Positions 15,796 through 30,772 are shown, counted from the stretch's first letter. The stretch: DNA of 64,000 bases from an uncultured delta proteobacterium (GCA_963701385.1 CAVOZW010000017.1:1481-65480); one strand, 5' to 3'. Made by a program: numbers and translations. The notes: a model not told the origin generated them from the sequence alone.

Positions 15796-17223
15796 TTACG
15801 GAGCAAGACAAAACAGCTTGCGGGTACAGGCAAAGCACACATTGCCATCAGTTGTAATCACCGGATTGCTCGTTATGGGTTCGTTGTCCGGTACCACGAT
15901 TTCCCAAACCGGTTCGGGTCCTTCATCGATAAGCCACAACCGGCCCTGTTGCTTAACCAGTATCTTGTTGTTGACTGTTGCTGTCACCAAGGGATCCTGG
16001 CCACCGTTGAATCCCAAGTTCCATTCTAGTTCCTCGGACTTAGCAGGCAATGGAAACTCCCACAGTAGCGCCCTGTTTTGGACACACAGAATGCGGTCCA
16101 GGGTGGCCACCAGAATCCGTCCGTCTAGCAATGTCACGGGAGGTTGCACCGGTTTCCCGGTTGGTAGATCAATCTCGACCAGTTTAATACCCGTGGGTGA
16201 AAACCTTAACAGGTGCATGCCGGTCACCCGTTGCTGGAGTCCCCAAATCGTATCTTCGAAATCCACCGAGACCATGCCTGCCATCAACTGGGTTTCGATC
16301 TTCCCGACCTCCTGTCCGTCCATATTGATCAGTTGCACCTGATCTTCCCGGCATAATACAACAGTGCCATCAGAAAGCACCGGCGAACGGGCGCCGTATG
16401 CATCGTATTCCTTCATCCATTTGATGCTGTCCATCTCACCACCCAAACGCTTACGCAACATCACAATGTCCTTGGCGTTTGGATTGCCTGGATGTGCGTA
16501 GTTTTGGAACACCATCACGACATCATCATCTTTTTGGAAAAAAGCCAACGGCGACGAATCTGACCGCCATCCGTCTATGTGCACGACCATGATACGTTCG
16601 TCATCGTCATTCTCTTCATCGTCTTCGTCATCGTCATCAGTACCATACGGTACGTCGTCGTAATCCTCGTCCTCCTCCCCTTCAACGTACTGGGCGAGAT
16701 CCGGACCCCGCAAGCCGAGGCAGGTATCGGCCGCATGGATGTAGTTGCCTTGACCCAGTAAGGCAAACAGACTCGGTGTACTCGGCGTCGTGGCCTCTAT
16801 CAGCTCTTTGTCCAACTGTACAATCCAGTGCTGCATCTGGCCCACGGCGATCATGGCGTCTCCGTCACTGAGCAGCCATTCGGCGACATCCGGTGGGCTA
16901 CCGGCGTCCAAAAGTGAAAGTTCAATCGGCTTGCCAAGGCGCGGGGAAAACTGGGTCAAATTAATGCCGACCACACTGTTCAATTGAGCATTGGCAAAAG
17001 CTTGGCCATAGGAGGGTTGGGGTCGCATATTCATTTTCCTGTCCCTTTCATAACGGCCATCGAGACCGCTTTTTGTTGTCTTATTTTTCGCTCCAGCCCG
17101 CAGCACGGAAGCCTCCTCCGCTGAAACGCACCCCACACAAATGGCGATCACCAGTACGGCGCCCAGAAGCGTTAATATTTTTTTACGGTGTAATTGTTGC
17201 CAGGGCATTTGGTTTGCATCCAT
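15796..17223 (-). CDS. Exported protein with PQQ/beta-propeller-like repeats and a poly-acidic insert; candidate immunity protein
   Basis: 475 aa. Signal/TM segment KKILTLLGAVLVIAICVGCVSA. Acidic run EGEEDEDYDDVPYGTDDDDEDDEENDDDE. Its 5' end overlaps the stop of the upstream zincin gene; Met at 17208 is an alternative start. Confidence 0.45.
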   Translation of the reverse strand: MDANQMPWQQLHRKKILTLLGAVLVIAICVGCVSAEEASVLRAGAKNKTTKSGLDGRYERDRKMNMRPQPSYGQAFANAQLNSVVGINLTQFSPRLGKPIELSLLDAGSPPDVAEWLLSDGDAMIAVGQMQHWIVQLDKELIEATTPSTPSLFALLGQGNYIHAADTCLGLRGPDLAQYVEGEEDEDYDDVPYGTDDDDEDDEENDDDERIMVVHIDGWRSDSSPLAFFQKDDDVVMVFQNYAHPGNPNAKDIVMLRKRLGGEMDSIKWMKEYDAYGARSPVLSDGTVVLCREDQVQLINMDGQEVGKIETQLMAGMVSVDFEDTIWGLQQRVTGMHLLRFSPTGIKLVEIDLPTGKPVQPPVTLLDGRILVATLDRILCVQNRALLWEFPLPAKSEELEWNLGFNGGQDPLVTATVNNKILVKQQGRLWLIDEGPEPVWEIVVPDNEPITSNPVITTDGNVCFACTRKLFCLAP

Positions 17224-19946
17224 GTCTTGAGAAACTCGAGATCAGACTTCCGGAATCTTGTGTCCCACTTATTGCTTCCCCCAACCCTACGCATGGCGGA
17301 CAAACCCAAACAATAACGGAACACCGATACCTGGTTCGCGGTGTGAATCAGCTCCAATTTTTTGCCTACCCGTCCGGCCAGGCCATTGATGTGGCTTTTT
17401 GTAAACTTGCGAATGTCCATCTTGTTGTTGGCGGCAGTCACAGACTTGAGCCGCACCTCGAATTCAAAATGGCAATCTGCAGGCGCTGCTGGGGACGCAT
17501 CATAAACCGGCATGAAATAAATCAGACACTTTCGGAAATCCCCAGTGGTGGATTCCAAGGTGAACATCTTTGAGTGCAATTCCCGACTATTGAACTTCTC
17601 CACCGCATTTTGAAACCGCCTCATCTGGGCACGCTGGTTGTTCCACCCGGTGATGTTGTTGCCGTCCGCATTGACGACATATTTATAGTGGGTTTTTAGC
17701 CGCACCACCAACACCGAATCGTAAAGGCAAGTGCCGTTTTTGACATTGTACTGCATCTCATCGATTCCGACTTTATACAACAGCAGATCCATGGTGCCGG
17801 TCTTGCTGTGTTGAAAAGTGTTATCAGTGATTGCGGGATTGAAGAAGTTTCTGTATTTGTTGGCAAGGAAATATTTCAGATTCCTGGTGGCACTGATTTT
17901 GTATTCAACATCGTACTCCCTTTTGCCGACCAGGGTCTGCACATTATTCGTTTTATTTACCCAACTGGCAAACTGCCAAAAATGTCGCAGCCGCAAACCT
18001 TTGTTGGTGAGCATAAGACTAACCTTGGTGGGCAATGAATAGGGTAAGGCCCGACGGGCTTGGTCAAAACGGGGGAGCACCGGTGACGTCCAATCGGAGT
18101 TGATGAGACTACCGGTGGCCGGGTCGGCGGTCGGCTCCAGGTATTCGTCCGGCAAGCCTACGGCATGGCCGATCTCGTGGGCCATGGTATACCAAGGGAA
18201 ACCGAGACCGTCAGCGGCATCAACGCCGGGCCCACCGCTCTGCTGGTAGTTACCCTTGGAAAAATTGGCTATGGTGGGCCCCATGGAATCACGGTCCGCC
18301 GGATTGGGATTGTACACCCTCACGTTGCAATGAAAAGGTGCCGTATCCCGAGCACTCAAATAAAACCGCACACGGATGGCCCGCTTTGGATTGGGTACCG
18401 GGGTGCCATGGGGCCGCATGATGTACTCCTTATGGTTTCCGGGCCTCCCCGGGTCGCAAGGGTGTTTGCCTTCATGCCGAATGCCGGTGTTCGTATTCCC
18501 AATCTTTTTGAAATTAGTAATAGCCGCGGCCATAACCCCATCGGCCCAATATTTGGCACACCAATGAACCAAAAGGTGGGATATCCGTTCGCTGCCTTTG
18601 CCCCAGCAATCATGGAAGTAATGCAAATCATAATTGCCGATCCCGGGCACAAACGGGTCTTTTATTCCGAGTTCACAAGGATGGTCATTGAACACCGCAG
18701 CGCGAATCCCGATGATGTGGCCCTTGGAGGTGTCTCCTTTGATGGTTCGTTCGTTGGTAAGATCGAAGAAGTCGTTTTTAACGCGTACAGCACGGGTGCA
18801 CTGCTCTGCCTTTTGACCGTCAACATAGAAATATTCGTCGCCCAAAAAATAGTTCTTATCCACCACTGGGGTGTTTTTGGTCAAATAAGGCTCGTTGGTC
18901 TCCGGATTACGGATGCCCATCAAGCGGTCAAAAATGGTAAATCGGGTGCCATTAGTCCAAGCCACGGGCAAGCGGTCACTTCCCACCAATACGAAGTCGT
19001 CGAGGAAGAATGTGAGGGGTTTGGCCTTTTCGGTCTGGAGATTGCCGTCTTTGATGAATTCTTTGTATTTCTTGACATCCGGCCCCAATTGGGTACGCTG
19101 GTTCTCGCTTTTCCAGATCTCCGGCAATGGGTAACGCTTAAGAAAATCGGGATACCCAAGTTTCTTGAAGTTAGCTTCTGTAATATGAGCGACCTTTTTC
19201 TCATCGGTCTTCAAAAACCGGTCTTTGCCGCACTTGGCAACCAGATAGATGTCCTCTTTGTCGTATTTTTTTCTGGTAACGCAAATGGCCACAATACCCT
19301 CATCGTTGAGGGGCGTAGCCGCACCAAGAAAATCGTCCTTGGAAAAGGTGTCTTTGTCCCAGGCTTTAACAAGAATGCCTCTAGGCAATCCCTCCACGCT
19401 TTTGGTGTGGCCGTTGTAGTATTCGTACTTCAGGTAGATCCAGTCCCATTTGTGGTTAACTACGATCTCCCAGGGTTTATCTGGGGTGCCGAGTTTGTTT
19501 TTGGCGAATTTTTTGATTTTCCCTTTTTTAAACTCACCGCTTCGGTCGTCGTGGAATTTTTCGTAGTCCTGGCTCTTCCACACCTCAGGAAAGCGAAACA
19601 CGCGTCGGTTGTCCCAAGGTTTAAGGTCCTTTTCCGCAACCAACGCAACGTTTTCGATGTCGAGGTACTCCTTTTTGGAAAAATCGACCTCAAAACAAAG
19701 CTCTTTGCCGTAATAGTCCCGTTCCTTGTAAGTTGCAACGCCCTTGTCATCGGTCTTGGCGCTTTCGATGAGGTCATCGTCATCCATAATTTTAACGGCA
19801 ACATCTTTGGGAAAAGGTTTGTTCTTTTCCTCAATGGGATCGAAATACATGAGCTTGATCACCACCTTGACGATGATCTTCTTGCGCAAGGCAATGACCT
19901 TTTCGATGGCGTCGATCTTTTGCAACAGAAAAATATCTTCCATCAC
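17172..19946 (-). CDS. Large putative zinc metallopeptidase (HExxH zincin), candidate T6SS cargo
   Basis: 924 aa. Motif FPWYTMAHEIGHAVGLPDEYLE (HExxH followed by G..DEY). The N-terminus carries a small beta-sandwich-like module also seen elsewhere in the island. 4-nt overlap with the upstream 236-aa gene. Confidence 0.6.
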   Translation of the reverse strand: MMEDIFLLQKIDAIEKVIALRKKIIVKVVIKLMYFDPIEEKNKPFPKDVAVKIMDDDDLIESAKTDDKGVATYKERDYYGKELCFEVDFSKKEYLDIENVALVAEKDLKPWDNRRVFRFPEVWKSQDYEKFHDDRSGEFKKGKIKKFAKNKLGTPDKPWEIVVNHKWDWIYLKYEYYNGHTKSVEGLPRGILVKAWDKDTFSKDDFLGAATPLNDEGIVAICVTRKKYDKEDIYLVAKCGKDRFLKTDEKKVAHITEANFKKLGYPDFLKRYPLPEIWKSENQRTQLGPDVKKYKEFIKDGNLQTEKAKPLTFFLDDFVLVGSDRLPVAWTNGTRFTIFDRLMGIRNPETNEPYLTKNTPVVDKNYFLGDEYFYVDGQKAEQCTRAVRVKNDFFDLTNERTIKGDTSKGHIIGIRAAVFNDHPCELGIKDPFVPGIGNYDLHYFHDCWGKGSERISHLLVHWCAKYWADGVMAAAITNFKKIGNTNTGIRHEGKHPCDPGRPGNHKEYIMRPHGTPVPNPKRAIRVRFYLSARDTAPFHCNVRVYNPNPADRDSMGPTIANFSKGNYQQSGGPGVDAADGLGFPWYTMAHEIGHAVGLPDEYLEPTADPATGSLINSDWTSPVLPRFDQARRALPYSLPTKVSLMLTNKGLRLRHFWQFASWVNKTNNVQTLVGKREYDVEYKISATRNLKYFLANKYRNFFNPAITDNTFQHSKTGTMDLLLYKVGIDEMQYNVKNGTCLYDSVLVVRLKTHYKYVVNADGNNITGWNNQRAQMRRFQNAVEKFNSRELHSKMFTLESTTGDFRKCLIYFMPVYDASPAAPADCHFEFEVRLKSVTAANNKMDIRKFTKSHINGLAGRVGKKLELIHTANQVSVFRYCLGLSAMRRVGGSNKWDTRFRKSDLEFLKTWMQTKCPGNNYTVKKY

Positions 19947-20653
19947 GACCTCGCTACCGGCTCGATTTGGCCCCAGCCCATATTCTCAAAGGCAAAGTAT
20001 TTTTCGCCATCCTTACCCGGATCCACCTCCAACCAGTAACTGAGGTTGGGAATCAAGTTCTTGAAAATTAGGTCCACACAATCATCTCCTTTTTCAATGT
20101 CGTCGGATGTAGTTTGGACCTGTTCATACTCACAGTCATCGACATTGCGGCCCCCAAATAGGGTGAATTTATCGTCCACGCTCTCCGCCTGGTTGGGATC
20201 AATGGGCAGGCGCACGTAAAGGCTGTATCGGACCACGGTTTCTTCGGTCGAAACAGGGATAGGACCCTCTGCTTCCGGTTCAAACGAGGGTACGGTCGTT
20301 TCGGCGACCATAACCTGCGTCCCCGACCAGGTGGGCATTGTCGACGGCACCTTGACAATCCGCAGGCGGCCTAGGATAACTAAATCCGCTAAGCGGTCGA
20401 CAACTGCCTGGTCGTTTGTTCGACGCAGGTAACTGCCTGTTGCTCCTTCTTGAACTACCTGCCTAAGCATTATAATATTGAAATAGTCCTTGAGAAAACC
20501 GCTCAGAAAGGCCCTGACACTTGAGCGCCCTGAAAACCGAATAAAATCAATTCCCGCCCTCGAATCGTGACCTGCAATCATCTCGTAAGACATGCAACCC
20601 TTACGAATAATTTTTTGCGCACTTGTATTCATTGTTTCTTCTGCAAAATCCAA
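19943..20653 (-). CDS. Hypothetical protein; its C-terminal domain is paralogous to ORF 26288-26803
   Basis: 236 aa. The C-terminal half is YSLYVRLPIDPNQAESVDDKFTLF...VDLIFKNLIPNLSYWLEVDPGKDG. It aligns to YYILIEMDDIDPAINDDEATLE...LRLEFSGVIPGKQYSLEYDLNKDNDG of the 171-aa ORF. Confidence 0.5.
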   Translation of the reverse strand: MDFAEETMNTSAQKIIRKGCMSYEMIAGHDSRAGIDFIRFSGRSSVRAFLSGFLKDYFNIIMLRQVVQEGATGSYLRRTNDQAVVDRLADLVILGRLRIVKVPSTMPTWSGTQVMVAETTVPSFEPEAEGPIPVSTEETVVRYSLYVRLPIDPNQAESVDDKFTLFGGRNVDDCEYEQVQTTSDDIEKGDDCVDLIFKNLIPNLSYWLEVDPGKDGEKYFAFENMGWGQIEPVARS

Positions 20654-20869
20654 TGAATTGTTTTCCTAAATATGCCGGTCTTTTCGCATTCCCCCAAGAA
20701 CTAATCTATTCCATAGAGACAGTAAACATTATGTATTTAGCCAATCCAAATAGCGTAAACTAACCGTTTTTTCACCTGAGTGAATCTTTTTCTATTTCTA
20801 AGCCGCATTTAGATTTGAAACCTGATATACGAGTCAAGAATTAGTCAGTAGCAGACTTGACCCCTATAG

Positions 20870-22762
20870 TTATTTAAATTCTCGTATATCCTGGCGGGTG
20901 AGTTTAACGCCTTCAACTGGATTTCTATCGCCAGTTCGCCACATTTTTTCCGGCAGGGTAATACCTAAATTGTCAGCGGCAGCTTTTGAAATCAGGCCGG
21001 TTTCATCGTCAATCACATCTTTCAGGCGCCACACCCAGAATGTGCCTTTGTATGTTTTAATTCTATCCTCACCGGATAAATCGGGATCGCCGCTTTCGGT
21101 TAAAACCTTTCCAAAATTAACCAAATATTTTACTTCATCCCTTCCTGCTTTATTTGTGACGCGATGGAATATTTGCCCGTTGCTATCAACCAGGGGAGAC
21201 CCATTGAAAAATTTGAATTTTGTTTTCCCGCTAACGATAACCTGGTCGATAATTGATATTAGGTTATCCAGCGAAGATCCAGCACGATTTATCGCTGCTT
21301 CATCGTCAATAATACTATTTAACTTATTTATTTTTGGTTTTCTCTTTTTCTTTAGTTGAATGATTTTTTTGTTGTTCGCTTTAATACTGTTTATGTTGTC
21401 CTGAATTTTGCGTTTTTTGGAGCGATCTCCTTTGTCTCTATTGATTTCATCGCGGCGTGTTTGCGTGTCATTTTCAAGCAAATCGATTTTGGTGTTAATT
21501 TCATTAATCTCATTCTCGAGCTGACTACGAGAAAGATAGAGATCCCGTTTGTTAATAATCTTGTTATAATTGGAATAATCATCAAACAAAAATGCGCCTG
21601 GCCCCGGCCCATTTGCTTGTATTTTGTATAGCCCTTTTTCGCAAGGATCGTCTGAACCATTGTTAAAAATATATTTTTGTTGGCAATTAATTTTATCACC
21701 TAGCTTGAATACCATCCATACGTGGCCTTTGCTTGCGCAGGTGTATATTGTTCCATCTTCCTCATTTAGCGCAAGCTCATAAAAATCTTTTGCCTTCCAA
21801 CGATGTTGGTCAGGATCGTTAGCAAGGTCAAAGGTGTCTTGAAAATCATTTATTTCATTGAAGACGCCGCCACTATAGCTGAGCAATGTAAAAAAGTTAC
21901 CGTATCCATTTGGCTTTTTGTATTCGCCATCAACTACAAAACCATCCGCGTTACGTTTTTCTCGCAGTTCGCCTGTTGGCGCTGCAAGCATTGAGCGGCT
22001 TGTGCCGGAGGCGGCAGTGTAATATTGGTTATAGTTCAACCAGTATGCGAAAAAAATCCCGGTAAGTGTTGAGCATACGGATGCGCCGTAATCACCTTCG
22101 TTACCAGTTGCGGAGACCATCAGTTTTTTGTTTTTTCCCTTTACTTTTAAGTGCCAGCCATCGGGATCGTCACTGCGAAAAGCGCCATCTTTATATCGTT
22201 CTATTCCTCTCCCATAAACAAGATTATGTTGCCATTCCATGAACTTTTCGAATTTTGTGTACTTTTTTACTCTTCTGAAAATAAATTTCAATTTTTGGTC
22301 TTCAGTGGTGGAGCCGTTTAATTCATGAGAAAGTGCTATCTCAATCTGGCTCAGATGCACATCTCCGCTCATGTTAGGTAATTCGATTGGTATTGTTATT
22401 TGCGGAAGTTTTAAAATTTTCCTCTGTAGTTTTCGGTACTCGTATTTACACTCAATTTTCAGGCAAGCGATAACGGAACCATCATCCGTGAAATTGCCAA
22501 ACTGATCAAACGAATACGTGATACCTTTGTGAATCAGTTTAGAATTGTCCTCATCAAGTTCATATTTTCGTTGTACTGGCCGACCAATCGCCTTGGCCTT
22601 TAGCTGGATTTCGTTTTCGACACTCGGGCTATCCTGTTTGATCTTTAGAGTGACGTCTCTAGTTGTGATTTTTACTGTTATCACGTCGCCTGAGTAACAG
22701 TGTGGATCCGTTCCGCTGACACGGTTTGGTAGTTTCCATACAACTTTATTGGCCATCTTCAC
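20870..22762 (-). CDS. Hypothetical large protein, candidate T6SS cargo (possible Cys/His hydrolase core plus Lys-rich coiled coil)
   Basis: 630 aa from AT-rich DNA. Candidate nucleophile context GDYGASVCSTLTGIFFAYW and a downstream CASKGHVWMVF. Lys/Asn-rich helical stretch ENEINEINTKIDLLEND...KKKRKPKINKL. Confidence 0.4.
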   Translation of the reverse strand: MKMANKVVWKLPNRVSGTDPHCYSGDVITVKITTRDVTLKIKQDSPSVENEIQLKAKAIGRPVQRKYELDEDNSKLIHKGITYSFDQFGNFTDDGSVIACLKIECKYEYRKLQRKILKLPQITIPIELPNMSGDVHLSQIEIALSHELNGSTTEDQKLKFIFRRVKKYTKFEKFMEWQHNLVYGRGIERYKDGAFRSDDPDGWHLKVKGKNKKLMVSATGNEGDYGASVCSTLTGIFFAYWLNYNQYYTAASGTSRSMLAAPTGELREKRNADGFVVDGEYKKPNGYGNFFTLLSYSGGVFNEINDFQDTFDLANDPDQHRWKAKDFYELALNEEDGTIYTCASKGHVWMVFKLGDKINCQQKYIFNNGSDDPCEKGLYKIQANGPGPGAFLFDDYSNYNKIINKRDLYLSRSQLENEINEINTKIDLLENDTQTRRDEINRDKGDRSKKRKIQDNINSIKANNKKIIQLKKKRKPKINKLNSIIDDEAAINRAGSSLDNLISIIDQVIVSGKTKFKFFNGSPLVDSNGQIFHRVTNKAGRDEVKYLVNFGKVLTESGDPDLSGEDRIKTYKGTFWVWRLKDVIDDETGLISKAAADNLGITLPEKMWRTGDRNPVEGVKLTRQDIREFK

Positions 22763-24200
22763 CCTCCTGCGATCGGTTAAGGGTGATTATTTCGGGGTCA
22801 TATACTGATGATGTCGAGGCAATATCAAATTTGCCGAGTCTGGTTTCGATGGTATACATTTCTGACGGTAGCATGTCTTTAATGATTGTACCATTATCAT
22901 TTGTTTTCCCATTCGCGACAGTGGCACCTTCGCTATCAATGATGGAATAGTCGAGTTCTGCTAGCGGTTTATCAAGTTCATCGACAAGCACGGCGGAAAC
23001 ACATTGAAAAATCGCGAAGTGGGTCCGGCTTCCGGTTAAATAAAGTGGAATATCGATGGGAATTTCACCGCTAAAGGCTTCTTCGTTCTCTTTTAAAACG
23101 ATCTCGGTTGTTTCCTCATCACTGGTCGCATCTGTGTCATCGACTTGATCCTCATCAAAGTCATCGGCCTTATCAGCGTTATCATATATGTCAGCCTCAT
23201 CTAATTCTTCACTGGCTGCTGATAATTTTGAAGTTTGCGTGTGAGGCGTCGTCGATGCCGCAGTCTGTACTTCTACTGTCGTCGCGCTTTCCATGTTTAG
23301 GCTCGGCAGTTCATTTTCTACGACCGGGATCACTTCGAGTAATTGCTCAAATTCCACGTACACCTTACCTGGCGGAATATCATCCAGTTTAATCAGGCCT
23401 TCTGCATCGGTTTTGCCCTTGATTTCCTGGTCGTCTGCCAAATACAGGATGTATGGTTCGTCTGCCAGTGGTTTGTTTAGTCCATTTGTTAACAATATTT
23501 CAATATTGTCCTGAAACTTCAGTAGCCCAGATTCCTGCTTATCACCAAATATCTTACCATGGAAATCAATCAGAAAGAAGTATTCAGGGGGATTATAATT
23601 TTCTCCATACTTCTCTTTTTCTTCCTGAGTAGGTATCTCATCTATATCTTCATGATATTCGTATTCCCACTCTGCCTCTATCTTTTTATTCTGCACCCGG
23701 CATGGAAATTTGGTAATGAAATCGTGGGCACCTTCCTGATCGTATTCATAGATAAGAACCATAACCTCTGTTTCATCCGGAAGATTTTCAACATCAGCAC
23801 TAAGCTTTACAATATCGCCCCGCCTTGCTTCCTTCTGCCCCCACTTTTGATGAGTCACCTCAACCGACGGGATGATCCTGACCGGCGCCGATGTCAATTC
23901 CAGACCGTGATCGGGCAGCTTCGCCGTAAAAGAAAGTTCTTCTTTAGCTTTCTGAGTAATGACAACGAAACCAGCAAAATGATCTCCAAAAACGATCCCT
24001 TTGACTTTTTCAATTATTTTGCCTTTTTTGTCTTCGACCTTTATTTCGATTTTGGAACCGTTGCCCACAAAATGGGTCATCACATCAAATGCGATCTTCT
24101 CATTTACAAATGCCATGCCGCTTTGCCAACTGGCGTGCGTGATTTTCGAATCGAGCGTGATCGTCTGGACTTCGTCCGTTTTTTTTTGATATTCCTTCAT
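22746..24200 (-). CDS. Multi-module protein paralogous to the PAAR C-terminal extension
   Basis: 484 aa. It shares WGQKEARRGDIVKLSADVE with the PAAR protein (WSQDEARVGDVVKLTAEVE). It also shares IEAEWEYEYHED...PEYFF and LKFQDNIEILL...PYILYLADDQEIKGKTDAEG...PPGKVYVEF with ORF 27344-27751. Contains an acidic linker. Confidence 0.5.
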   Translation of the reverse strand: MKEYQKKTDEVQTITLDSKITHASWQSGMAFVNEKIAFDVMTHFVGNGSKIEIKVEDKKGKIIEKVKGIVFGDHFAGFVVITQKAKEELSFTAKLPDHGLELTSAPVRIIPSVEVTHQKWGQKEARRGDIVKLSADVENLPDETEVMVLIYEYDQEGAHDFITKFPCRVQNKKIEAEWEYEYHEDIDEIPTQEEKEKYGENYNPPEYFFLIDFHGKIFGDKQESGLLKFQDNIEILLTNGLNKPLADEPYILYLADDQEIKGKTDAEGLIKLDDIPPGKVYVEFEQLLEVIPVVENELPSLNMESATTVEVQTAASTTPHTQTSKLSAASEELDEADIYDNADKADDFDEDQVDDTDATSDEETTEIVLKENEEAFSGEIPIDIPLYLTGSRTHFAIFQCVSAVLVDELDKPLAELDYSIIDSEGATVANGKTNDNGTIIKDMLPSEMYTIETRLGKFDIASTSSVYDPEIITLNRSQEGEDGQ

Positions 24201-24253
24201 ACTATTCGAATCATTTTCATCGGCACGAATATTTCGTTGCCAGGACGAGGTCG

Positions 24254-26248
24254 CTAAACATCCAGTTTCTTAGCCTGGTAGCCACTATAGGCTGATGTAA
24301 AAAAATTGTGCACATAGGCTTCGAAGTTCTTATCGCCCACGATCTCGTTGATCATGGCATCATCTCCCGGGTTTTGCTTTTTCAATTCGATCATCAAGGG
24401 GTGTTCTTTGACTTTTTTTAATTCGATAAAAAAATCATAATAGTCCGATACCCATTTGTTCTTGGATGGGTCATTTTTCTTAAACTCTGTTTTCATCGCA
24501 GCGAGGTAACGTTTCTCTTCGATGGATTTATAATCGAATATCCCCTCGCACAGTGCGCCGATGAGCGAAACGGCTATACCCACTCCCACGAGAATAGCAC
24601 CGAGCGGTGCAAATGGTGTTAACATCAAAACCGAACCTCCCAAAACAAGCCCTTTTCCCGCGTATGCAACTACAGAATAGGCGTACTTTTTGCCATCACC
24701 GGTATCAGCTGCAGCATACATATCGTAGATCGAGATTCCCCAATCTGCTGCTGCCCCAGCAACTCCAGCCGCCTTAGAAACGACAGCTCCTTTTGGGATT
24801 CGATTATTTATTACAGGGATATCCATGATATCCGTTGTTACACCATAAATTGCAGTAGCCTTATCGATGGTGTCACGATTGTTCTTGCTCTCCTTTTGCA
24901 ATGCTGCAAGAAGTGATATGGCCGACACACCAGCTTTAATGCCGCCTTTGATATTGTCCGGTACAGGATTTGTTTGTTTCTCGAAAAAGCCATCCACATT
25001 TACTGGTGTCCCGTGAATGAGAGAACGATCTAACTCCTGTTGCAGCTCACCGTAGTCGGTAATAATCCCTTTCGCTTCGAGAAAATAGCAGACGCCTTTG
25101 AAATCTGTGCTGAGTGATCTAAGCTTTGAAGCTAATTGATAATTTCTGGCTTCAGCCACGATTTTTAACATATTCTGTATGTTACCAATCCACTTGGCCT
25201 TTTCTTCTGCTTTCTTTATGGCACTTTTGGCCTTGCCTTTAGCCGAGTCTTCGACCAGCTTTTTAAACTGCTCTTTGTACAAAGAACGGGAGGTATATGT
25301 TCCCGTTTGAAAAAAGGAAATTAGCGCATCATCGTAGATCTTGATGATTTCATCAGTGGGTATGAAAGTGGAACTCGAATTTCGTTTTTCCCAATCCGTT
25401 ATCTTGTATTGATAATTGTGGATTTGAGATCGAAAGATCGCATCGAGGATGGCGACCGGCATCTGAATCCTTTTTTTGTATCTTCGGGTTTCGCCTTCTA
25501 TAAAATTAGTCAATACCCTTCTCGTTTCCTCTACACAAGCTACATTGATAATCGTGCTTTCAATGTTGTCGGAGTAAAATATTTTATCCCCCGTAGATAT
25601 CCTTCCTTTTACTCGTCGTTCTTTTTTGTGCGCCCTTAATGATAGTGATATCTGGATATGGCGTCCACGCCCCTTCACCACATTATGGGCCTGATCAAGA
25701 AGGCACGCACAAGCCATGGCTTTACCGATACAATTGTGATACGCCTTAGTCGTTTTCGTCAATATTTTAGTGTAGTGCTTCAGTCTCTCAATATAGATAT
25801 CGATTGGACAACACAGAAAAATCGCCTTATTATCTTTGTTGATGAAGCCACGAAATGCAAGGTTGTGCTTATTCAGATAATCAACGTTTACCGATTTGGC
25901 AGTCACATATTTGAAAGGCCAGACAAACAAGCATATTTCTTGATCTGAAGAAAAGGTAACAGGTTGATATCTATATTTATAGTGTTTTTTCATTATCCAG
26001 GGATGCATGAGCTGAGAGACCATGAATTTCTTGTTTTTAAATTGCAGGTCTGAATCGCACGTATACATGATCCCCTTGTTGTCTGTCCTGGCAACTCCTC
26101 CGAAAATTTTGCCCATGTTGACAAAATCATTTTTAGTATATGCATAGACAACCCACTGGTTCGTTATCGGGACTGGAAGACGTTTCCCCTTACGAACGAA
26201 AGACTCACCTGCATAGAACAATTTCGGTTTTATCGCTTGGCCTGCCAT
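24254..26248 (-). CDS. Hypothetical large protein with C-terminal glycine-zipper/TM segments, candidate membrane-targeting cargo
   Basis: 664 aa. C-terminal AAGVAGAAADWGISIY and VVAYAGKGLVLGGSVLMLTPFAPLGAILVGVGIAVSLIGALC. I recognise no catalytic motif. Confidence 0.4.
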   Translation of the reverse strand: MAGQAIKPKLFYAGESFVRKGKRLPVPITNQWVVYAYTKNDFVNMGKIFGGVARTDNKGIMYTCDSDLQFKNKKFMVSQLMHPWIMKKHYKYRYQPVTFSSDQEICLFVWPFKYVTAKSVNVDYLNKHNLAFRGFINKDNKAIFLCCPIDIYIERLKHYTKILTKTTKAYHNCIGKAMACACLLDQAHNVVKGRGRHIQISLSLRAHKKERRVKGRISTGDKIFYSDNIESTIINVACVEETRRVLTNFIEGETRRYKKRIQMPVAILDAIFRSQIHNYQYKITDWEKRNSSSTFIPTDEIIKIYDDALISFFQTGTYTSRSLYKEQFKKLVEDSAKGKAKSAIKKAEEKAKWIGNIQNMLKIVAEARNYQLASKLRSLSTDFKGVCYFLEAKGIITDYGELQQELDRSLIHGTPVNVDGFFEKQTNPVPDNIKGGIKAGVSAISLLAALQKESKNNRDTIDKATAIYGVTTDIMDIPVINNRIPKGAVVSKAAGVAGAAADWGISIYDMYAAADTGDGKKYAYSVVAYAGKGLVLGGSVLMLTPFAPLGAILVGVGIAVSLIGALCEGIFDYKSIEEKRYLAAMKTEFKKNDPSKNKWVSDYYDFFIELKKVKEHPLMIELKKQNPGDDAMINEIVGDKNFEAYVHNFFTSAYSGYQAKKLDV

Positions 26249-26287
26249 GCTATTACAATATCATCCAAATTCTATTATCAGAACGTT

Positions 26288-26803
26288 TTACTCCTCATAA
26301 CCGTCTGCCTGTTCGGACTGCAATATCGCCTCGTCATCCGCATCGATATCCGGCTCCTGGTACAATTCATCTATTTCAGATGAAACAAATCCAGACTCGC
26401 TATAAGGCAATGCACCGTCAACAGATATATCTTGGTGCTTTGTGATTGGCCTCTTTTTATCCAGGTCCTCTTCTTCGATCAGCAATTCATGGAAAACGAT
26501 GAATCTGCCGAGGTCGTTTCCATCATTATCCTTATTCAAGTCATACTCTAAGCTATATTGTTTCCCTGGAATGACCCCGGAAAATTCCAAACGCAGATAT
26601 TTGTCATCGACTTTTTCGCTTTTTTCAGCCACCTTAATGGTCTTTTTGTACTTTTCATCAGATGACTCCAGAGTGGCTTCATCGTCATTAATGGCCGGAT
26701 CAATGTCATCCATCTCAATCAGGATATAGTAGGTTCCGCCCAAATAAAATTGATTTCGCTTACCACTTCTGGCTTTGCGCTTTTTGGTTTTATAGTTTTC
26801 CAT
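26288..26803 (-). CDS. Small acidic protein, paralog of the C-terminal domain of ORF 19943-20653
   Basis: 171 aa. See the alignment given for 19943-20653. Lies immediately upstream (39 nt) of the 664-aa gene. Confidence 0.5.
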   Translation of the reverse strand: MENYKTKKRKARSGKRNQFYLGGTYYILIEMDDIDPAINDDEATLESSDEKYKKTIKVAEKSEKVDDKYLRLEFSGVIPGKQYSLEYDLNKDNDGNDLGRFIVFHELLIEEEDLDKKRPITKHQDISVDGALPYSESGFVSSEIDELYQEPDIDADDEAILQSEQADGYEE

Positions 26804-26850: not shown

Positions 26851-27324
26851 TTATTGAGATGGTACATCAAAACTCATCAGTATCTTATCAACTTTTCCTC
26901 TTAGCATTTTCCACGTTTTTTTTGAAAATGTGGCATTGAGTATATAACCTGTGTTATTTCTCGTCAGGTAAATGGCTCGCTGGTAAACTTCCCTGTTATC
27001 AACCGGACACCACTTATAGACAATATCAACTCCTTGAATTCCACTTAAAAATGTGATCTTTCCCCGTTTCAGTTCCTGGTAGCCTTGCATTTCACCTTCC
27101 ACAGCCCTGATATTTTTAGCAGCATACTTTTCAAAATTCTGTTCGTCGATATTATTTTCGATCGTTACATAAATATTGTGGCGGATACCATCCTCTTCAG
27201 GACCTTCATAGCGGTATACCGACTGATCCTTCCAATCCGTTGGCAATCTTAAATTGAATCGGTTATTTAATATAATAAAAGCAGAGTTCTGATTGTTTTG
27301 GTCTGTTTTCTTCTTCTTGAACAT
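26851..27324 (-). CDS. DUF1795 (DcrB/Eag-family) T6SS effector chaperone-like protein
   Basis: 157 aa. The pattern FNLRLPTDWKDQSVYRYE...NIYVTIE...QGYQELKRGKITFLSGIQGVDIVYKW...YQRAIYL...YILNATFS...KILMSFDV matches the DUF1795 layout as I remember it. Lies directly downstream of the PAAR gene. Confidence 0.6.
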   Translation of the reverse strand: MFKKKKTDQNNQNSAFIILNNRFNLRLPTDWKDQSVYRYEGPEEDGIRHNIYVTIENNIDEQNFEKYAAKNIRAVEGEMQGYQELKRGKITFLSGIQGVDIVYKWCPVDNREVYQRAIYLTRNNTGYILNATFSKKTWKMLRGKVDKILMSFDVPSQ

Positions 27325-27343: not shown

Positions 27344-27751
27344 TTAATCAGGTTGGTTGGCTATATTCGGAAACTTCACATCACAATTTCCGGGAGGAAC
27401 TTCTTCCTCTTTTCTATATCCATTTCCATCAAGCTTGCCTTTTCTAATTTCGCCGTTGGCTAGATACAGAATATATTCCTCATTTGGAATTGGATTATCC
27501 TCGTTGTCCAATAGCTCGATTTCAAGATAATCTTTGAACTCCAGAATATCCGACCTGGTCCTCTGGTTCTTAACTTTTACAAAGAAATAGTATTCCGGTG
27601 CCGAGTAGCCCTTTTTCTTGTCGGATTCTGAGTCCTCGTCCTCATCTTCGTGATATTCGTATTCCCATTCTGCTTCGACTTTGCCTCCGTCTACCTCTGG
27701 CTTCGATCTCCTCGATAAAATCGTCCGAACCAGTGATATCTCTGTTCCCAT
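27344..27751 (-). pseudogene. C-terminal extension module of the PAAR protein, detached by an in-frame TGA
   Basis: 135-aa ORF in the same frame as the PAAR ORF, separated only by TGA-AAT. Contains VEAEWEYEYHED...PEYYFF and LEFKDYLEIELL...EYILYLANGEIRKGKLDGNG...PPGNCDVKF modules homologous to ORF 22746-24200. Its first ~30 codons match the paralog better in another frame. Confidence 0.45.
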
Positions 27752-27754
27752 ATT

Positions 27755-28435
27755 TCAATCCTGGCGGTTGTTGCCATCCTCGAAACCTTCCACTTCTGCG
27801 GTCAGTTTAACCACATCGCCGACCCTGGCCTCGTCTTGCGACCACTTGGCGTTATAAACCGCGAAAAGCTTGACCGTGTAATCACCTTCGTCCGGCAGCC
27901 CGCTTCGTTTGATGCGGCCGTCGCCGGTCAGGATTCCTTTGGAAGTATTCCCACCCGGGTCGGTCAATTCGTACTCGACTTCGGTGATCGGGTTGCCGGC
28001 CGAATCCACGAACTGGCAGTCGATCCAGTGGGGTCCTTCTTTTTCGGGGCCTGGCTCGCCCACCAAAGCGGAGTAGGCGCTGGCCTTGGCAGCCGCTGCA
28101 GCACCGCCGCCCCCGCCACCACCGCCGCCCCCGCCAGTCTCGCCAATCAGGACCGTCATGCAGCCCAGGACGATGGCGTCGGGCGGGCCGGTGCAGACGG
28201 CCATGTCGCCCATACGGGCTGCCGGCATACCACCGATGAGAACCCCGGCGCTCCCCAGGGATATGGGCCCACCCACATGGGGCACCGGTGCGGGTGCCGG
28301 CGTCACCATGGGGCACACATGCATATCGCCGAGTCGCGCCGCCGGCATGCCACCAATGAGCACGGTGGGGCATCCGGCCACGATAGTGCCGCCATGGGCG
28401 GTCATGTCGCCGATTCTGGCCGCGGGTTTACCCAA
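27755..28435 (-). CDS. PAAR-domain protein (T6SS spike tip) with a poly-Gly linker and beta-sandwich-like extension
   Basis: TTG start with GGAGG 5 nt upstream. Three PAAR motifs (PAARIGD, PAARLGD, PAARMGD), then a G11A5 linker. The C-terminal module ends WSQDEARVGDVVKLTAEVEGFEDGNN. Confidence 0.9.
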   Translation of the reverse strand: MGKPAARIGDMTAHGGTIVAGCPTVLIGGMPAARLGDMHVCPMVTPAPAPVPHVGGPISLGSAGVLIGGMPAARMGDMAVCTGPPDAIVLGCMTVLIGETGGGGGGGGGGGAAAAAKASAYSALVGEPGPEKEGPHWIDCQFVDSAGNPITEVEYELTDPGGNTSKGILTGDGRIKRSGLPDEGDYTVKLFAVYNAKWSQDEARVGDVVKLTAEVEGFEDGNNRQD

Positions 28436-28554: not shown

Positions 28555-30771
28555 CTAGTTGATCATCACAATCGCTCCGGATATGGTCGTCTTGGCACCA
28601 CCCTTGAGCTCCGCCATGGTACTGCCCTCGACCTTGGCCGACAGGCCGCCCTTGGCTTCCATATTCATGCCGCCCTCGATCTTGGCGTCCATGTCGGCCT
28701 TGATCTCAACATTCATGGCCTTGAGCGAGATTTCGTTGGCCTCCAATGCGATTTTGCCGCTGGACGCCGTAATGTTGATATCCCCGCCCGACTCAATGGT
28801 GATGGTGGAGCCCGCATCCAGCTTGACGATGTTGCCGCCGGCATCCTCGATGGTCACGTTGTCGTTGTCGTCGTCCAGGGTGATGTGGTGGCCGCTGCTG
28901 CTGGCCAAACTAATTTTCTTTTGATCGTCGTCCAGGATGGCGCTGTGACCCTCTGTTGTGGTCAATTCTATTTTCTTGTTCTCGTCGTCAAACAGGAATT
29001 TGTGGCCGTCCGTGGTCTGGGTGGTGATCTTTTTGTTCTCGTCGTCAATCTCCAGCGTGTGCCCGTTGGTCGAGCTCAGCACGATCTTCTTGTTCTCGTC
29101 GTCGAACAGCAGCTTGTGGGCGTTGGTGGTCTCGATGGCGATCAGCTTGTTTTTATCGTCCATGGACACTTTGTGCTGGTCGCGGGTTTCGATGGTCAGG
29201 ATCTGCTCTTTTTCATCCATGGTCAGCTTGTGGCCGTAGGCGTTCAACAACACCACCCGGGTTTCCTTGGATTTGTCTTCCATCAGCAGTTCGTTAAACG
29301 ACCCGCCTCCCGGGGTGGTCTGCGAACGCAGGGCGCTCTTGGTCTTTTGGTCCGGCAGCTTGTAGGGCGGCGTGTTGGTGCCGTGATAAACCCGGCCGGT
29401 GATCAGGGGTTTGTCCGGGTCCCCTTCCAGAAAGTCCACCACCACCTCCTGGTCGACGCGTGGGATGTGCATGGCGCCCCATCCGGCCCCGGCCCAGATC
29501 TGACTGACGCGGATCCAGCAGGAGCTTTTTTCGTTTTTCTTCCCCACACGGTCCCAGTGGAATTGCACTTTCACACGACCGTGTTCATCCGTGTAGATCT
29601 CTTCGCCGGCAGGCCCCACTACGATGGCTGTCTGGATGCCCTGAACAATGGGCTTGGGGGTTTTGCGCAGGGGCCGGTAAACCACGTCGGAAGGGATGCC
29701 GCTGAACTTGTTGCTGTAGCTGAATCCCTCTGTACCGGCCTGCTCTTCCAGCACCTGGGGCTGGGATCCGAAATGGCTGATGTCGGTTAACAAATACTCC
29801 TTTTCAAAACTGCTCAGATCGTGCCCTTCCAGCTTGAAGGTAAATCCGGGAACCAGGCGCGGGCAGTTGCTCTGTCCTTCAACGCTTTCCAAAAAGACAC
29901 GGCCCTCGTCCAGACGGATGTTGGCCAGGGCATCTCCGCGAGCATCTTCGATGTAGTCGCCCGGATAGTCGTACTGCTCGATCTCGGTATGGGTATTGGC
30001 TTCCTTGTGCCGCAGCAGCTTGGCCGAGGGTTTCAGAAAATTGAAATCTTTGAGGGACACCTTTCCCGTGGATATTTGGCGCGAGTGCGCCACAGTCTGG
30101 ATGGTTTCCTTGGTGACCACCATACCGGCCCCCGTCCGGACCGCGATTTCCACCTGATTGTCGTCATTTTTCTCACCCTGGATAGGCCGGTAGATACCGG
30201 CACTGTCGGCAAAGACCAGCAGGTGATTTTCCTCGTCGTGCTCGAAAAAGTAGAAAATGCCTTCCGCCTCTGCCAAACGGGAAATAAAATTCAAATCGGT
30301 TTCGCGGTACTGGACACAATAGTCCATTTTTTCGTAGCTACCCTGCAACCGGAATTCGAATCGGTCCGAAGTGATGCCGGCTTCGGTCAGAACCTCCTCG
30401 ATAATTCCTTTGACGTCCTTTTCCTGGAATATGCGGCAGTCCTGCGCCAGGGAGAGCAGCCAGAGGGTCGGTACCAGTGTGGCTTTGTACAGAAAAAATC
30501 GCCTGGTGCTGCCGGTTTGCCAGAATTTATTGACGATGCCGTGAAAGTGACGCTCCGAATCCGTTTTGAGGCCAAAGATCGATAGCAGACCGATTTCACC
30601 GACGACATCGTCAAAGGTCACTTCCACCTCGTCATCGCGTGTGGCCAGTGTGAGATCGACTTCAAACGGTGTGGAGATGTCCTCTCTGGCTGAAAAAGCC
30701 ACGACCCGGAGTTGCCGCCCGCCGGCCTTGAATAGAAAGCTCTCCTCGTCCGCCGATCTGAAATCAGCCAT
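28555..30771 (-). CDS. vgrG: VgrG (TssI) spike protein
   Basis: gp27/gp5-like sequence: FHGIVNKFWQTGS, YCVQYRETDLNFISRLAEAEGIFYFFEH, VKVQFHWDR, WIRVSQIWAG. C-terminal beta-helix repeats. ATG at 30771 with GGAGGA upstream is preferred over the track's TTG at 30783. Confidence 0.93.
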   Translation of the reverse strand: MADFRSADEESFLFKAGGRQLRVVAFSAREDISTPFEVDLTLATRDDEVEVTFDDVVGEIGLLSIFGLKTDSERHFHGIVNKFWQTGSTRRFFLYKATLVPTLWLLSLAQDCRIFQEKDVKGIIEEVLTEAGITSDRFEFRLQGSYEKMDYCVQYRETDLNFISRLAEAEGIFYFFEHDEENHLLVFADSAGIYRPIQGEKNDDNQVEIAVRTGAGMVVTKETIQTVAHSRQISTGKVSLKDFNFLKPSAKLLRHKEANTHTEIEQYDYPGDYIEDARGDALANIRLDEGRVFLESVEGQSNCPRLVPGFTFKLEGHDLSSFEKEYLLTDISHFGSQPQVLEEQAGTEGFSYSNKFSGIPSDVVYRPLRKTPKPIVQGIQTAIVVGPAGEEIYTDEHGRVKVQFHWDRVGKKNEKSSCWIRVSQIWAGAGWGAMHIPRVDQEVVVDFLEGDPDKPLITGRVYHGTNTPPYKLPDQKTKSALRSQTTPGGGSFNELLMEDKSKETRVVLLNAYGHKLTMDEKEQILTIETRDQHKVSMDDKNKLIAIETTNAHKLLFDDENKKIVLSSTNGHTLEIDDENKKITTQTTDGHKFLFDDENKKIELTTTEGHSAILDDDQKKISLASSSGHHITLDDDNDNVTIEDAGGNIVKLDAGSTITIESGGDINITASSGKIALEANEISLKAMNVEIKADMDAKIEGGMNMEAKGGLSAKVEGSTMAELKGGAKTTISGAIVMIN
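28860..29240 (-). repeat. Coding ~57-nt (19-aa) tandem periodicity of the VgrG C-terminal beta-helix
   Basis: Successive repeat units: HKLLFDDENKKIVLSSTNG, HTLEIDDENKKITTQTTDG, HKFLFDDENKKIELTTTEG, HSAILDDDQKKISLASSSG, HHITLDDDNDNVTIEDAGG. Confidence 0.75.
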
Positions 30772-30772
30772 G

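Follow-up and report, generated by a model that had tools for sequence, protein, structure and literature searches.

This locus raises the question whether two small genes, each lying directly before a large gene of a different kind, encode related proteins, and what such proteins would do. The locus is part of a stretch of 64,000 nucleotides (nt) from an uncultured delta proteobacterium (GCA_963701385.1 CAVOZW010000017.1:1481-65480), called the window below. All genes discussed share the minus strand of one long type VI secretion system (T6SS) unit. An earlier note, made from the DNA alone, had marked a common pattern in the two products and proposed an adaptor-like family or, alternatively, an immunity or regulatory domain. 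Both open reading frames (ORFs) named there are present, as are the peptide strings it quoted. All organisms considered are uncultured metagenome-assembled genomes (MAGs), and statements about function are derived from genome context and predicted structure. Genes are named after the length of their products in amino acids (aa); L and P numbers are our labels for loci and proteins. The two pairs of genes are:

26288-26803, minus strand: p171, 171 aa; shared domain at nt 26468-26761, residues ~24-109
24254-26248, minus strand: p664, candidate cargo effector whose C-terminal hydrophobic segments are of the glycine-zipper kind; invariable partner of p171-type proteins
19943-20653, minus strand: p236, 236 aa as the longest ORF; shared domain at nt 19946-20248
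17172-19946, minus strand: p924, candidate zinc-metallopeptidase cargo effector with an AHEIGH motif, coupled to p236

The p171 and p236 proteins are homologous in a shared domain of ~85 aa, and this conclusion is solid. Both alignments proposed in the earlier note were run, and the pairwise one proved marginal. BLASTP aligns the two proteins with 29% identity over 75 aa (E 0.001, single comparison), and phmmer against all ORFs of the genome does not recover the link at E<=1, therefore the pairwise link alone is unconvincing. Few close homologues exist for either protein. In contrast, profile comparisons are significant. The hhalign comparison of the two small families gives a probability of 61% and E 7.9e-5 over exactly the region marked in the note. 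The joint profile of this region (A3), searched against 1.84 billion representative proteins, matches 323 clusters at E<=1e-3 and 77 at E<=1e-10. At least five of the listed matches are repeat-adhesin false positives, and thus the true family is somewhat smaller than 323 clusters. The five giant hits (1922-4136 aa) are Gram-positive-type TQ-ester/cadherin repeat adhesins collected through summed weak matches, and were not retained in the family.

As a control for circularity, a hidden Markov model (HMM) was constructed solely from members less than 30% identical to p171 and searched against the 62,843 six-frame ORFs of the genome. It found p236 at 2.4e-33 and p171 at 1.9e-9, with no other match at E<=10. 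The reciprocal HMM found p236 at 4.8e-8. Natural intermediates exist: P0019 combines a p236-type N-terminus with a p171-type C-terminal domain, and the domain sequences of P0102 and P0104 lie between the two types. The order of strands is the same in the AlphaFold2 (AF2) models of both proteins. Thus it is hardly credible that the similarity is due to chance, or to generic resemblance of beta-sandwiches with no shared function. The weak pairwise signal speaks for that explanation, as does the fact that the profile also gathers the repeat adhesins. However, the cross-validated matches of 2e-9 and 5e-8, with nothing else found in the genome, effectively refute it, and the intermediates, the shared architectures and the consistent gene context across phyla point the same way.

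According to profile searches, p171 and p236 carry the only copies of the domain in this genome. They are separately acquired modules rather than products of a recent duplication, since the domains are only 23% identical and reside in DNA of different composition. The GC content is 42% at 20-28 kb, the block of p171, p664, p484 and p630, ~50% in the p236-p924 cassette, and 55-58% in the T6SS core. This contrast agrees with the view that the two cargo modules were acquired horizontally on separate occasions.

The domain is confidently predicted to be a beta-sandwich of six to seven strands. In the AF2 model of p171, residues 24-109 form a seven-strand sandwich (pLDDT 74-87), flanked by a basic and disordered segment (residues 1-21) and an acidic, disordered C-terminal tail; five homologues were aligned. 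In the model of p236, based on a 32-sequence alignment, the C-terminal domain has pLDDT 93-96, and the N-terminal ~100 residues form a separate alpha/beta domain. The parts of p236 are an N-terminal alpha/beta domain of ~80 aa, a linker, and the shared sandwich at the extreme C-terminus. Gene callers choose M21 as the start of p236 (ATG at 20593), yielding a 216-aa protein (P0006). Foldseek searches of both models against PDB, and of the p236 model against BFVD, returned generic immunoglobulin (Ig), fibronectin type III (FN3) and C2 sandwiches at E>=0.03, the exception being one unnamed BFVD entry at E 5.5e-3. The weak best neighbours include the C2 domains of SHIP2, PLC-delta1 and CAR4, and FN3/Ig domains, at E 0.03-0.2; the C2 matches (E 0.035-0.1) are among the top ones but weak. 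No superfamily could be assigned from the Foldseek matches.

The family consensus is, roughly, L-x-V-R-L-x-I-D-P-x-D-x(4)-D-D-x-F-T-L-x-S-x-D-x(n)-Y-x-Q-x-K-T-V-K-D-D-x(3)-G-D-x(3)-D-L-x-F-x-G-L-x(5)-Y-x-L-E-V-D-P-G-x-E-G-E-x-Y-x(2)-F-E. Among polar positions, conservation is highest for aspartates in the loops beta1-beta2, beta3-beta4 and beta5-beta6 (profile positions D18, D26-D27, D47-D48, D53, D74). Since an up-and-down sandwich places these loops at the same end, we infer a conserved acidic tip at one end of the domain. Two of the conserved aspartates are absent from p171-type members.

The domain appears to be undescribed, as no model or paper was found in a 2025 copy of Pfam, in NCBIfam release 20, or by full-text literature search. 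In Pfam, p171 and p236 have no match at E<=0.1 and the domain segments none at E<=10; the two proteins have no NCBIfam match; and searching the PDB sequences with the profile produced no meaningful match. The concept of an effector-loading domain, on the other hand, is already established.

The architectures were compared in 149 representative members, with the giant adhesins left out. There are 50 proteins of at most 160 aa, 63 of 161-300 aa and 36 longer than 300 aa; the 50 short ones, of 104-160 aa, are the stand-alone form. The domain is nearly always terminal, with a median of 6 residues after the last copy and at most 30 in 113 of the 149 proteins, and therefore it abuts the next gene. 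Tandem arrays of 2-5 copies occur in 13 of the 149. The domain is found at the C-terminus of Hcp (T6SS_HCP) proteins (P0039, P0064, ORFs in L018 and L062), in fusions with Phage_GPD/VgrG-like proteins (P0074, P0067, P0088), and in PAAR fusions (P0112 and the 425-501-aa proteins of L068, L072, L075 and L078); those of L068 and L075 adjoin VgrG. Thus it is encoded in more than one form, both stand-alone and at the C-terminus of a carrier. Other modules preceding it are LysM, PG_binding_1, OmpA and CarboxypepD_reg-like domains. The p236-type N-terminal domain occurs in seven proteins, p236 and six other family members.

In a further form the domain lies mid-protein and is followed by Q/N/K-rich coiled-coil repeats; the C-terminal extensions found on the domain are of this kind. 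At L079:7497-9104, and also in L074, L076, L077 and L080, the sandwich is followed by 134-288 aa of such repeats of ~18 residues, for example QTVNDAKSQVDDIKQNAT, present ~8 times, and the repeats end in SLKSVPKF(N/T)I. A similar repeat forms a 157-aa gene after a two-domain protein in L015. A scan of public collections with a narrow alignment (A6) found nine genome loci and five metagenome loci, and no domain locus on viral contigs. A word-indexed protein search with a broad alignment (A5) found only eight proteins.

The downstream neighbours of the homologues were examined, and large genes and T6SS loci are associated with the domain. Neither of the two outcomes that the note had named as refuting its interpretation was observed, since the similarity is significant in profile comparisons and the homologues do show these associations. 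The gene after the domain is usually large and cargo-like (377-1061 aa) and comes from many unrelated families: the p664 family, the HExxH proteins p924 and L013_810, Lipase_3, MBL-fold proteins, and LysM-headed proteins with at least four different bodies. In about half of the loci it is joined to the domain gene by an overlap of 1-13 nt or a gap of a few nt. In the window, the p236 stop and the p924 start overlap by 4 nt (19943-19946), and the gap between p171 and p664 is 39 nt. The description of the large gene as variable applies to the family as a whole, but not to close subfamilies, in which the partner is constant: p171-type genes always occur with p664-type genes, and p236-type genes with a HExxH protein. 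The small gene lies directly upstream of candidate cargo in a VgrG/PAAR island in the window and in L001-L007, L031, L064, L068 and L075.

For p171-type genes with readable flanks, the next gene in every case encodes a p664 homologue:

L001-L003: p664 homologue, 82% identity
L005: p664 homologue, 43% identity
L006: p664 homologue, 55% identity
L007: p664 homologue, truncated
L031: p664 homologue, in another genome of the same phylum
L027/L028: p664 homologue, 24% identity over 506 aa, E 1e-30

The pairs of L001-L003, L005, L006, L007 and L031 stand behind VgrG and/or PAAR genes in T6SS islands. In L027/L028, the pair is oriented divergently as a cassette within a cluster of phage-tail type, which has housekeeping genes on either side. 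This cluster encodes a sheath, a gp25-like sheath initiator, Baseplate_J, a Phage_base_V spike, a PG_binding_1 protein, two small tube-sized ORFs that match no family and, in L027, a 951-aa protein. We read it as an extracellular contractile injection system (eCIS)-like or tailocin-like system. The cassette of L027:1-20342 (ENA k141_596810), situated mid-cluster, comprises a 113-aa domain protein and a 662-aa p664 homologue. The small protein and its p664-type partner move together, being found as a pair both in T6SS islands and in an eCIS-like tail cluster, which is an unusual feature.

The p236-type genes behave similarly. In L004 the whole p236-p924-p475 cassette is repeated (75% and 58% identity), with a 75%-identical p924 orthologue after the p236 orthologue. 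In L013, a 133-aa p236-type gene is followed by a gene for an 810-aa protein with a HEIGH motif. The latter was considered as a p924 homologue and rejected, as the likeness is limited to the HExxH motif and the first ~30 residues. In local alignments of the first 60 residues, the score of L004 against L013 was reached in 0 of 2000 shuffles, and p924 against L013 gave p 0.026. Thus cargo leaders track the helper subtype, the HExxH cargoes behind p236-type helpers being similar in their first ~30 residues but not in the rest. A shared N-terminal motif was looked for between p664 and p924, and none was found. A decayed zincin cassette was observed at L014:7581-9845. Its p236-type gene is retained, while the zincin is reduced to a 132-aa ORF in which nothing of the p924 family is left beyond the first ~42 residues; the p475-like exported protein is intact, and its gene may be an orphaned immunity gene.

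Twenty loci of 4-16 kb were examined in genomes of the Chitinivibrionales/Chitinispirillaceae type. Here proteins of ~250-280 aa ending in the domain overlap a downstream LysM-headed gene by 8-13 nt. The LysM-headed proteins have at least four unrelated bodies (618-680, 437, 418 and 377 aa) and are often followed by a MORN_2 protein. A Lipase_3 protein is encoded downstream of another helper, and MBL-fold proteins downstream of the Hcp-domain fusions; the PAAR-domain fusions are encoded two genes behind VgrG. A recurrent family of 238-317 aa was observed downstream of LysM-headed or MBL-fold cargo (L065:5281-6057, L066:100-816, L062:7954-8907, L018:2294-3247). The L065 member (258 aa), the sole one scanned, has MORN_2 repeats. 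The family may confer immunity to several cargo bodies that are unrelated to one another.

The association with T6SS is seen at the level of fusions to PAAR, Hcp and VgrG-like proteins, of VgrG-PAAR islands elsewhere, and of whole genomes. Of 201 sampled genomes from the phylum to which the Chitinivibrionales MAG belongs, the domain profile matches 35, with up to seven copies each, and TssC (PF05943) is found in 87. TssC is present in 34 of the 35 domain-positive genomes and in 53 of the 166 domain-negative ones. The lone domain-positive genome lacking TssC is a highly fragmented assembly with a weak match. Fisher's exact test gives p 1e-13 with phylogeny ignored; as related genomes are not independent, this value is overstated, although the direction is clear. 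In the phylum of the window, the domain occurs in 2 of 401 genomes, both times inside a VgrG-PAAR island, and in none of 40 closer relatives.

The order of genes on the minus strand of the window is ClpV, VgrG, PAAR, DcrB/DUF1795, p171, p664, p484, p630, p236, p924, p475; the genes for TssG, F, E, Hcp, TssC, B, A, M and K lie further upstream of the cargo island. No convincing minus-strand terminator was found between the island genes. The remaining features are:

30773-33403, minus strand: ClpV, upstream of VgrG
28555-30783, minus strand: VgrG spike heading the cargo island; the L001 orthologue has Phage_GPD and Phage_base_V
27344-28435, minus strand: PAAR (PAAR_motif, E 7.7e-25) with a C-terminal beta-sandwich extension of module X and a prealbumin-like part
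26851-27324, minus strand: p157, DcrB/DUF1795 (Eag-type) chaperone (PF08786, E 1.4e-12)
22746-24200, minus strand: p484, with module-X and prealbumin-like modules as in the PAAR extension (phmmer)
15796-17223, minus strand: p475, exported lipoprotein-like beta-propeller with a signal/lipobox-like N-terminus

A p157-type gene adjoins the p171-p664 pair in the window and lies downstream of the p664 homologue in L005 and L006. Searches of Pfam and PDB with p664 gave no match, and the M6/snapalysin motif matches of p924 are weak. The p475 orthologue that follows the zincin in L004 has a weak PQQ_2 match; p475 is likely the immunity protein of p924.

Module X (W..eA..GD.v.L.a.v...) is common to the PAAR extension, p135 and p484 (window 22746-24200, 27344-28100). 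According to phmmer searches with p484 and p135, module-X or prealbumin modules occur in one chain with the shared domain in P0052, P0120, P0028, P0122, P0138, P0088 and P0075. Because these parts form single polypeptides elsewhere, the island of the window looks like a disassembled version of single-chain carriers. The PAAR gene of the window is broken at 27650-27830 (minus strand) by an in-frame TGA at 27755-27757 into ORFs of 226 and 135 aa. Compared with the 91%-identical intact 362-aa orthologue of L001, it has three 1-nt insertions within ~100 nt. Through these the reading frame is lost and then regained, so that ~25 residues are scrambled and the in-frame TGA arises. This interruption is either a real pseudogene or the result of indel errors in the MAG assembly.

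What, then, does the domain do? On balance we lean, by a small margin over even chances, towards a new effector-loading (tether or adaptor) domain of contractile injection systems, chiefly T6SS. Of the functions proposed in the note, gene context favours the adaptor-like one, while the immunity or regulatory one is disfavoured. A loading role is suggested by five features: the domain exists in stand-alone and carrier-fused forms; it is last in its chain, abutting the next gene; translational coupling to that gene is frequent; the proteins encoded next are large, resemble enzymes or are orphans, and belong to many families; and the immunity slot holds an exported or repeat protein. Taken together, these agree with known effector-recruitment domains (PMC10673891) and with TTR platforms or RIX adaptors (PMC10435454), MIX co-effectors (PMC8728615) being a related precedent. 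In the proposed model the domain would end a polypeptide on the carrier side. This polypeptide would be a carrier that is itself secreted (PAAR, Hcp or a VgrG-like hub), or else a small separate protein that touches the spike with its variable N-terminal part. The product of the next, often translationally coupled gene would be the cargo, held by the domain probably via the N-terminal leader of the cargo. In the window, p171 would load p664, whose hydrophobic helices would be shielded by the adjacent Eag/DUF1795 chaperone, and p236 would load the zincin p924, with the exported p475 as its immunity protein; both cargoes would be loaded onto the VgrG-PAAR spike. The analysis shows the homology, the predicted fold class, the domain architectures, the gene order and the linkage to T6SS across genomes, whereas physical binding, the assignment of surfaces to partners and any co-secretion of the small proteins are inferred.

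Several observations weigh against a loading role. The co-occurrence with TssC is confounded by shared ancestry. About half of the loci have no injection-system gene within 8-10 kb; when T6SS genes were looked for in 10 kb around five orphan loci, only housekeeping genes were found, which is what orphan auxiliary modules would lead one to expect. The zixibacterial domain gene is placed between an orphan gene of 889-977 aa and ClpV, heading the T6SS core, and thus follows the large orphan. The conserved acidic surface argues for a common ligand, such as a metal, the carrier or the target envelope, rather than for variable cargo. Finally, an Ig-like module for binding or decoration would account for the tandem arrays and the company of LysM, PG_binding_1 and OmpA no less well than an adaptor. 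The zixibacterial islands themselves (L011:2331-20234, L012:140-18418, L017) have ClpV in two ORFs of 485 and 337-366 aa. They mirror the window, with a PAAR protein carrying X/TTR modules, a DcrB-like gene, a p484-like gene, and the 889-977-aa orphan, the domain gene being the last before ClpV.

The main rival is a co-delivered accessory module, or co-effector, that acts in or on the target and is not a loading adaptor. In this view an Ig/C2-like sandwich, which would probably bind Ca2+, fastens the spike or effector to the envelope or membrane of the target, or keeps it stable once outside the cytoplasm. We regard this as possible but rather unlikely. The three conserved Asp-rich loops, presumably at one tip, the weak C2 and FN3/Ig neighbours, the tandem arrays, the chains shared with the cell-wall-binding modules LysM, PG_binding_1 and OmpA, and the fusion to secreted carriers, with which the domain would be delivered, all agree with it. 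However, it leaves unexplained the one-to-one coupling of each stand-alone subtype with a cargo family or leader, and the near-constant last position before the cargo gene; moreover, p171-type members lack two of the conserved aspartates, and the Foldseek matches are not significant. Loading and binding after delivery are not mutually exclusive, as a co-secreted tether could do both.

It is improbable that the small proteins are non-secreted, cargo-specific cytoplasmic chaperones of the Eag/Tap kind, the carrier fusions being secondary. Translational coupling upstream of the cargo, the lack of a signal peptide, the disordered and charged tails of p171, and co-occurrence with a true Eag chaperone would suit such a role. 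But domains at the C-termini of PAAR, Hcp and VgrG-like proteins leave the cell with the carrier, and p664 already has an Eag chaperone. A cognate immunity or regulatory domain for the downstream toxin is very unlikely, even though the proteins are small, adjoin the toxin gene and are conserved with it. The same fusions to secreted carriers contradict it, and one domain family precedes many unrelated toxins. The small proteins are cytoplasmic and encoded upstream, and neither p171 nor p236 has a signal peptide or transmembrane segment, so that they do not have the location of an immunity protein. Besides, the p924 cassette already contains the exported p475, and the LysM-cargo cassettes have the MORN_2 protein downstream. 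No DNA-binding features and no Pfam match indicate a regulator.

A more specific form of the effector-loading reading, which we put forward tentatively and consider doubtful, is a portable dock, such that a p171-type and p664-type pair would be loaded on a T6SS spike in some bacteria and into an eCIS in others. The tip, acidic and possibly able to bind Ca2+, would contact something that the spikes or tubes of the two machines have in common, and surfaces differing between subtypes would recognise the N-terminal leader of the cargo.

A comparable arrangement is known for the TTR loading platforms on PAAR/VgrG and for the RIX 'secreted adaptors' or tethers (Kanarek et al. 2023, PMC10435454). In both cases a small beta-sandwich either ends a carrier or is encoded alone by the first of three genes in an operon; the genes for the cargo effector and for immunity come directly after it; the module is free or fused to PAAR/VgrG; and the cargo N-terminus is the proposed contact. 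As in the TTR architecture, AF2 models and fusions place a C-terminal beta-sandwich on PAAR/VgrG with the cargo gene next. However, p171 and p236 have no CarboxypepD_reg, SpaA or transthyretin-like match, whereas p484 and the PAAR extension do, and the Asp-rich loops are distinctive of the shared domain. No N-terminal delivery domain comparable to RIX is matched in Pfam or NCBIfam, though these libraries may not hold a RIX model. Unlike TTR and RIX, the domain also occurs on Hcp and in an eCIS-like cluster, and its hosts are Fibrobacterota-like, Zixibacteria, Myxococcota and other MAG lineages, not Vibrionaceae.

Other domain families that are both stand-alone and fused in vgrG loci (DUF2345, FIX-like, LysM, PG_binding_1) have been reported (Wang et al. 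2023, PMC10673891). The shared domain resembles them in having a stand-alone gene and a C-terminal fusion to the carrier, and shares polypeptides and cassettes with LysM and PG_binding_1. It is not among the six families reported and matches no conserved-domain model; that screen could not find it because known CDD domains were required.

The adaptor families DUF4123 (Tap-1/Tec), DUF2169 and DUF1795 (Eag) are likewise small genes upstream of cargo in VgrG/PAAR islands, with one family serving many effector families. However, there is no sequence similarity, the fold class is different, and neither p171 nor p236 belongs to these Pfam families; the genuine DUF1795 gene, p157, stands beside p171 as a separate component. 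The classical adaptors are described as not secreted (PMC8728615), whereas the shared domain is often part of secreted carriers. The same paper describes the MIX co-effector as a 'binary effector module' (Dar et al. 2021), in which a non-toxic partner is encoded with the effector, the two being proposed to be loaded and secreted together. A similar relation may exist here; the evidence for secretion of the helper with its cargo is indirect, namely that the domain forms part of secreted carriers in other genomes. In contrast to that system, p171 and p236 have no Pfam or NCBIfam match, and hence no MIX domain was detected.

Ig-like decoration domains occur on phage tail and tube proteins. The shared domain resembles them and C2 domains as a small beta-sandwich on tube, spike or hub proteins, with tandem copies; its single acidic tip, if correctly predicted, recalls the Ca2+-binding loops of C2. 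It differs from decoration domains in the strict pairing with a downstream cargo gene, and the structural matches are generic (E>=0.03).

Shared signals are missing from most T6SS effectors, which makes them difficult to detect, and loading or marker domains such as MIX, FIX, RIX, TTR and DUF4123 have each opened a whole effector repertoire. The shared domain would do the same for lineages that have been little studied, namely Fibrobacterota-like bacteria, Zixibacteria, Myxococcota and the phylum of the window. It flags at least eight unrelated candidate effector families, mostly orphans, among them the 664-aa glycine-zipper protein, two HExxH families, a class-3 lipase and several LysM-headed proteins. 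Its occurrence in an eCIS-like cluster hints that cargo modules may move between injection systems, which bears on the evolution of these systems and on the engineering of cargo loading. If the portable dock is real, it would amount to an address system of general use that can be transferred and that directs toxins to injection machines.

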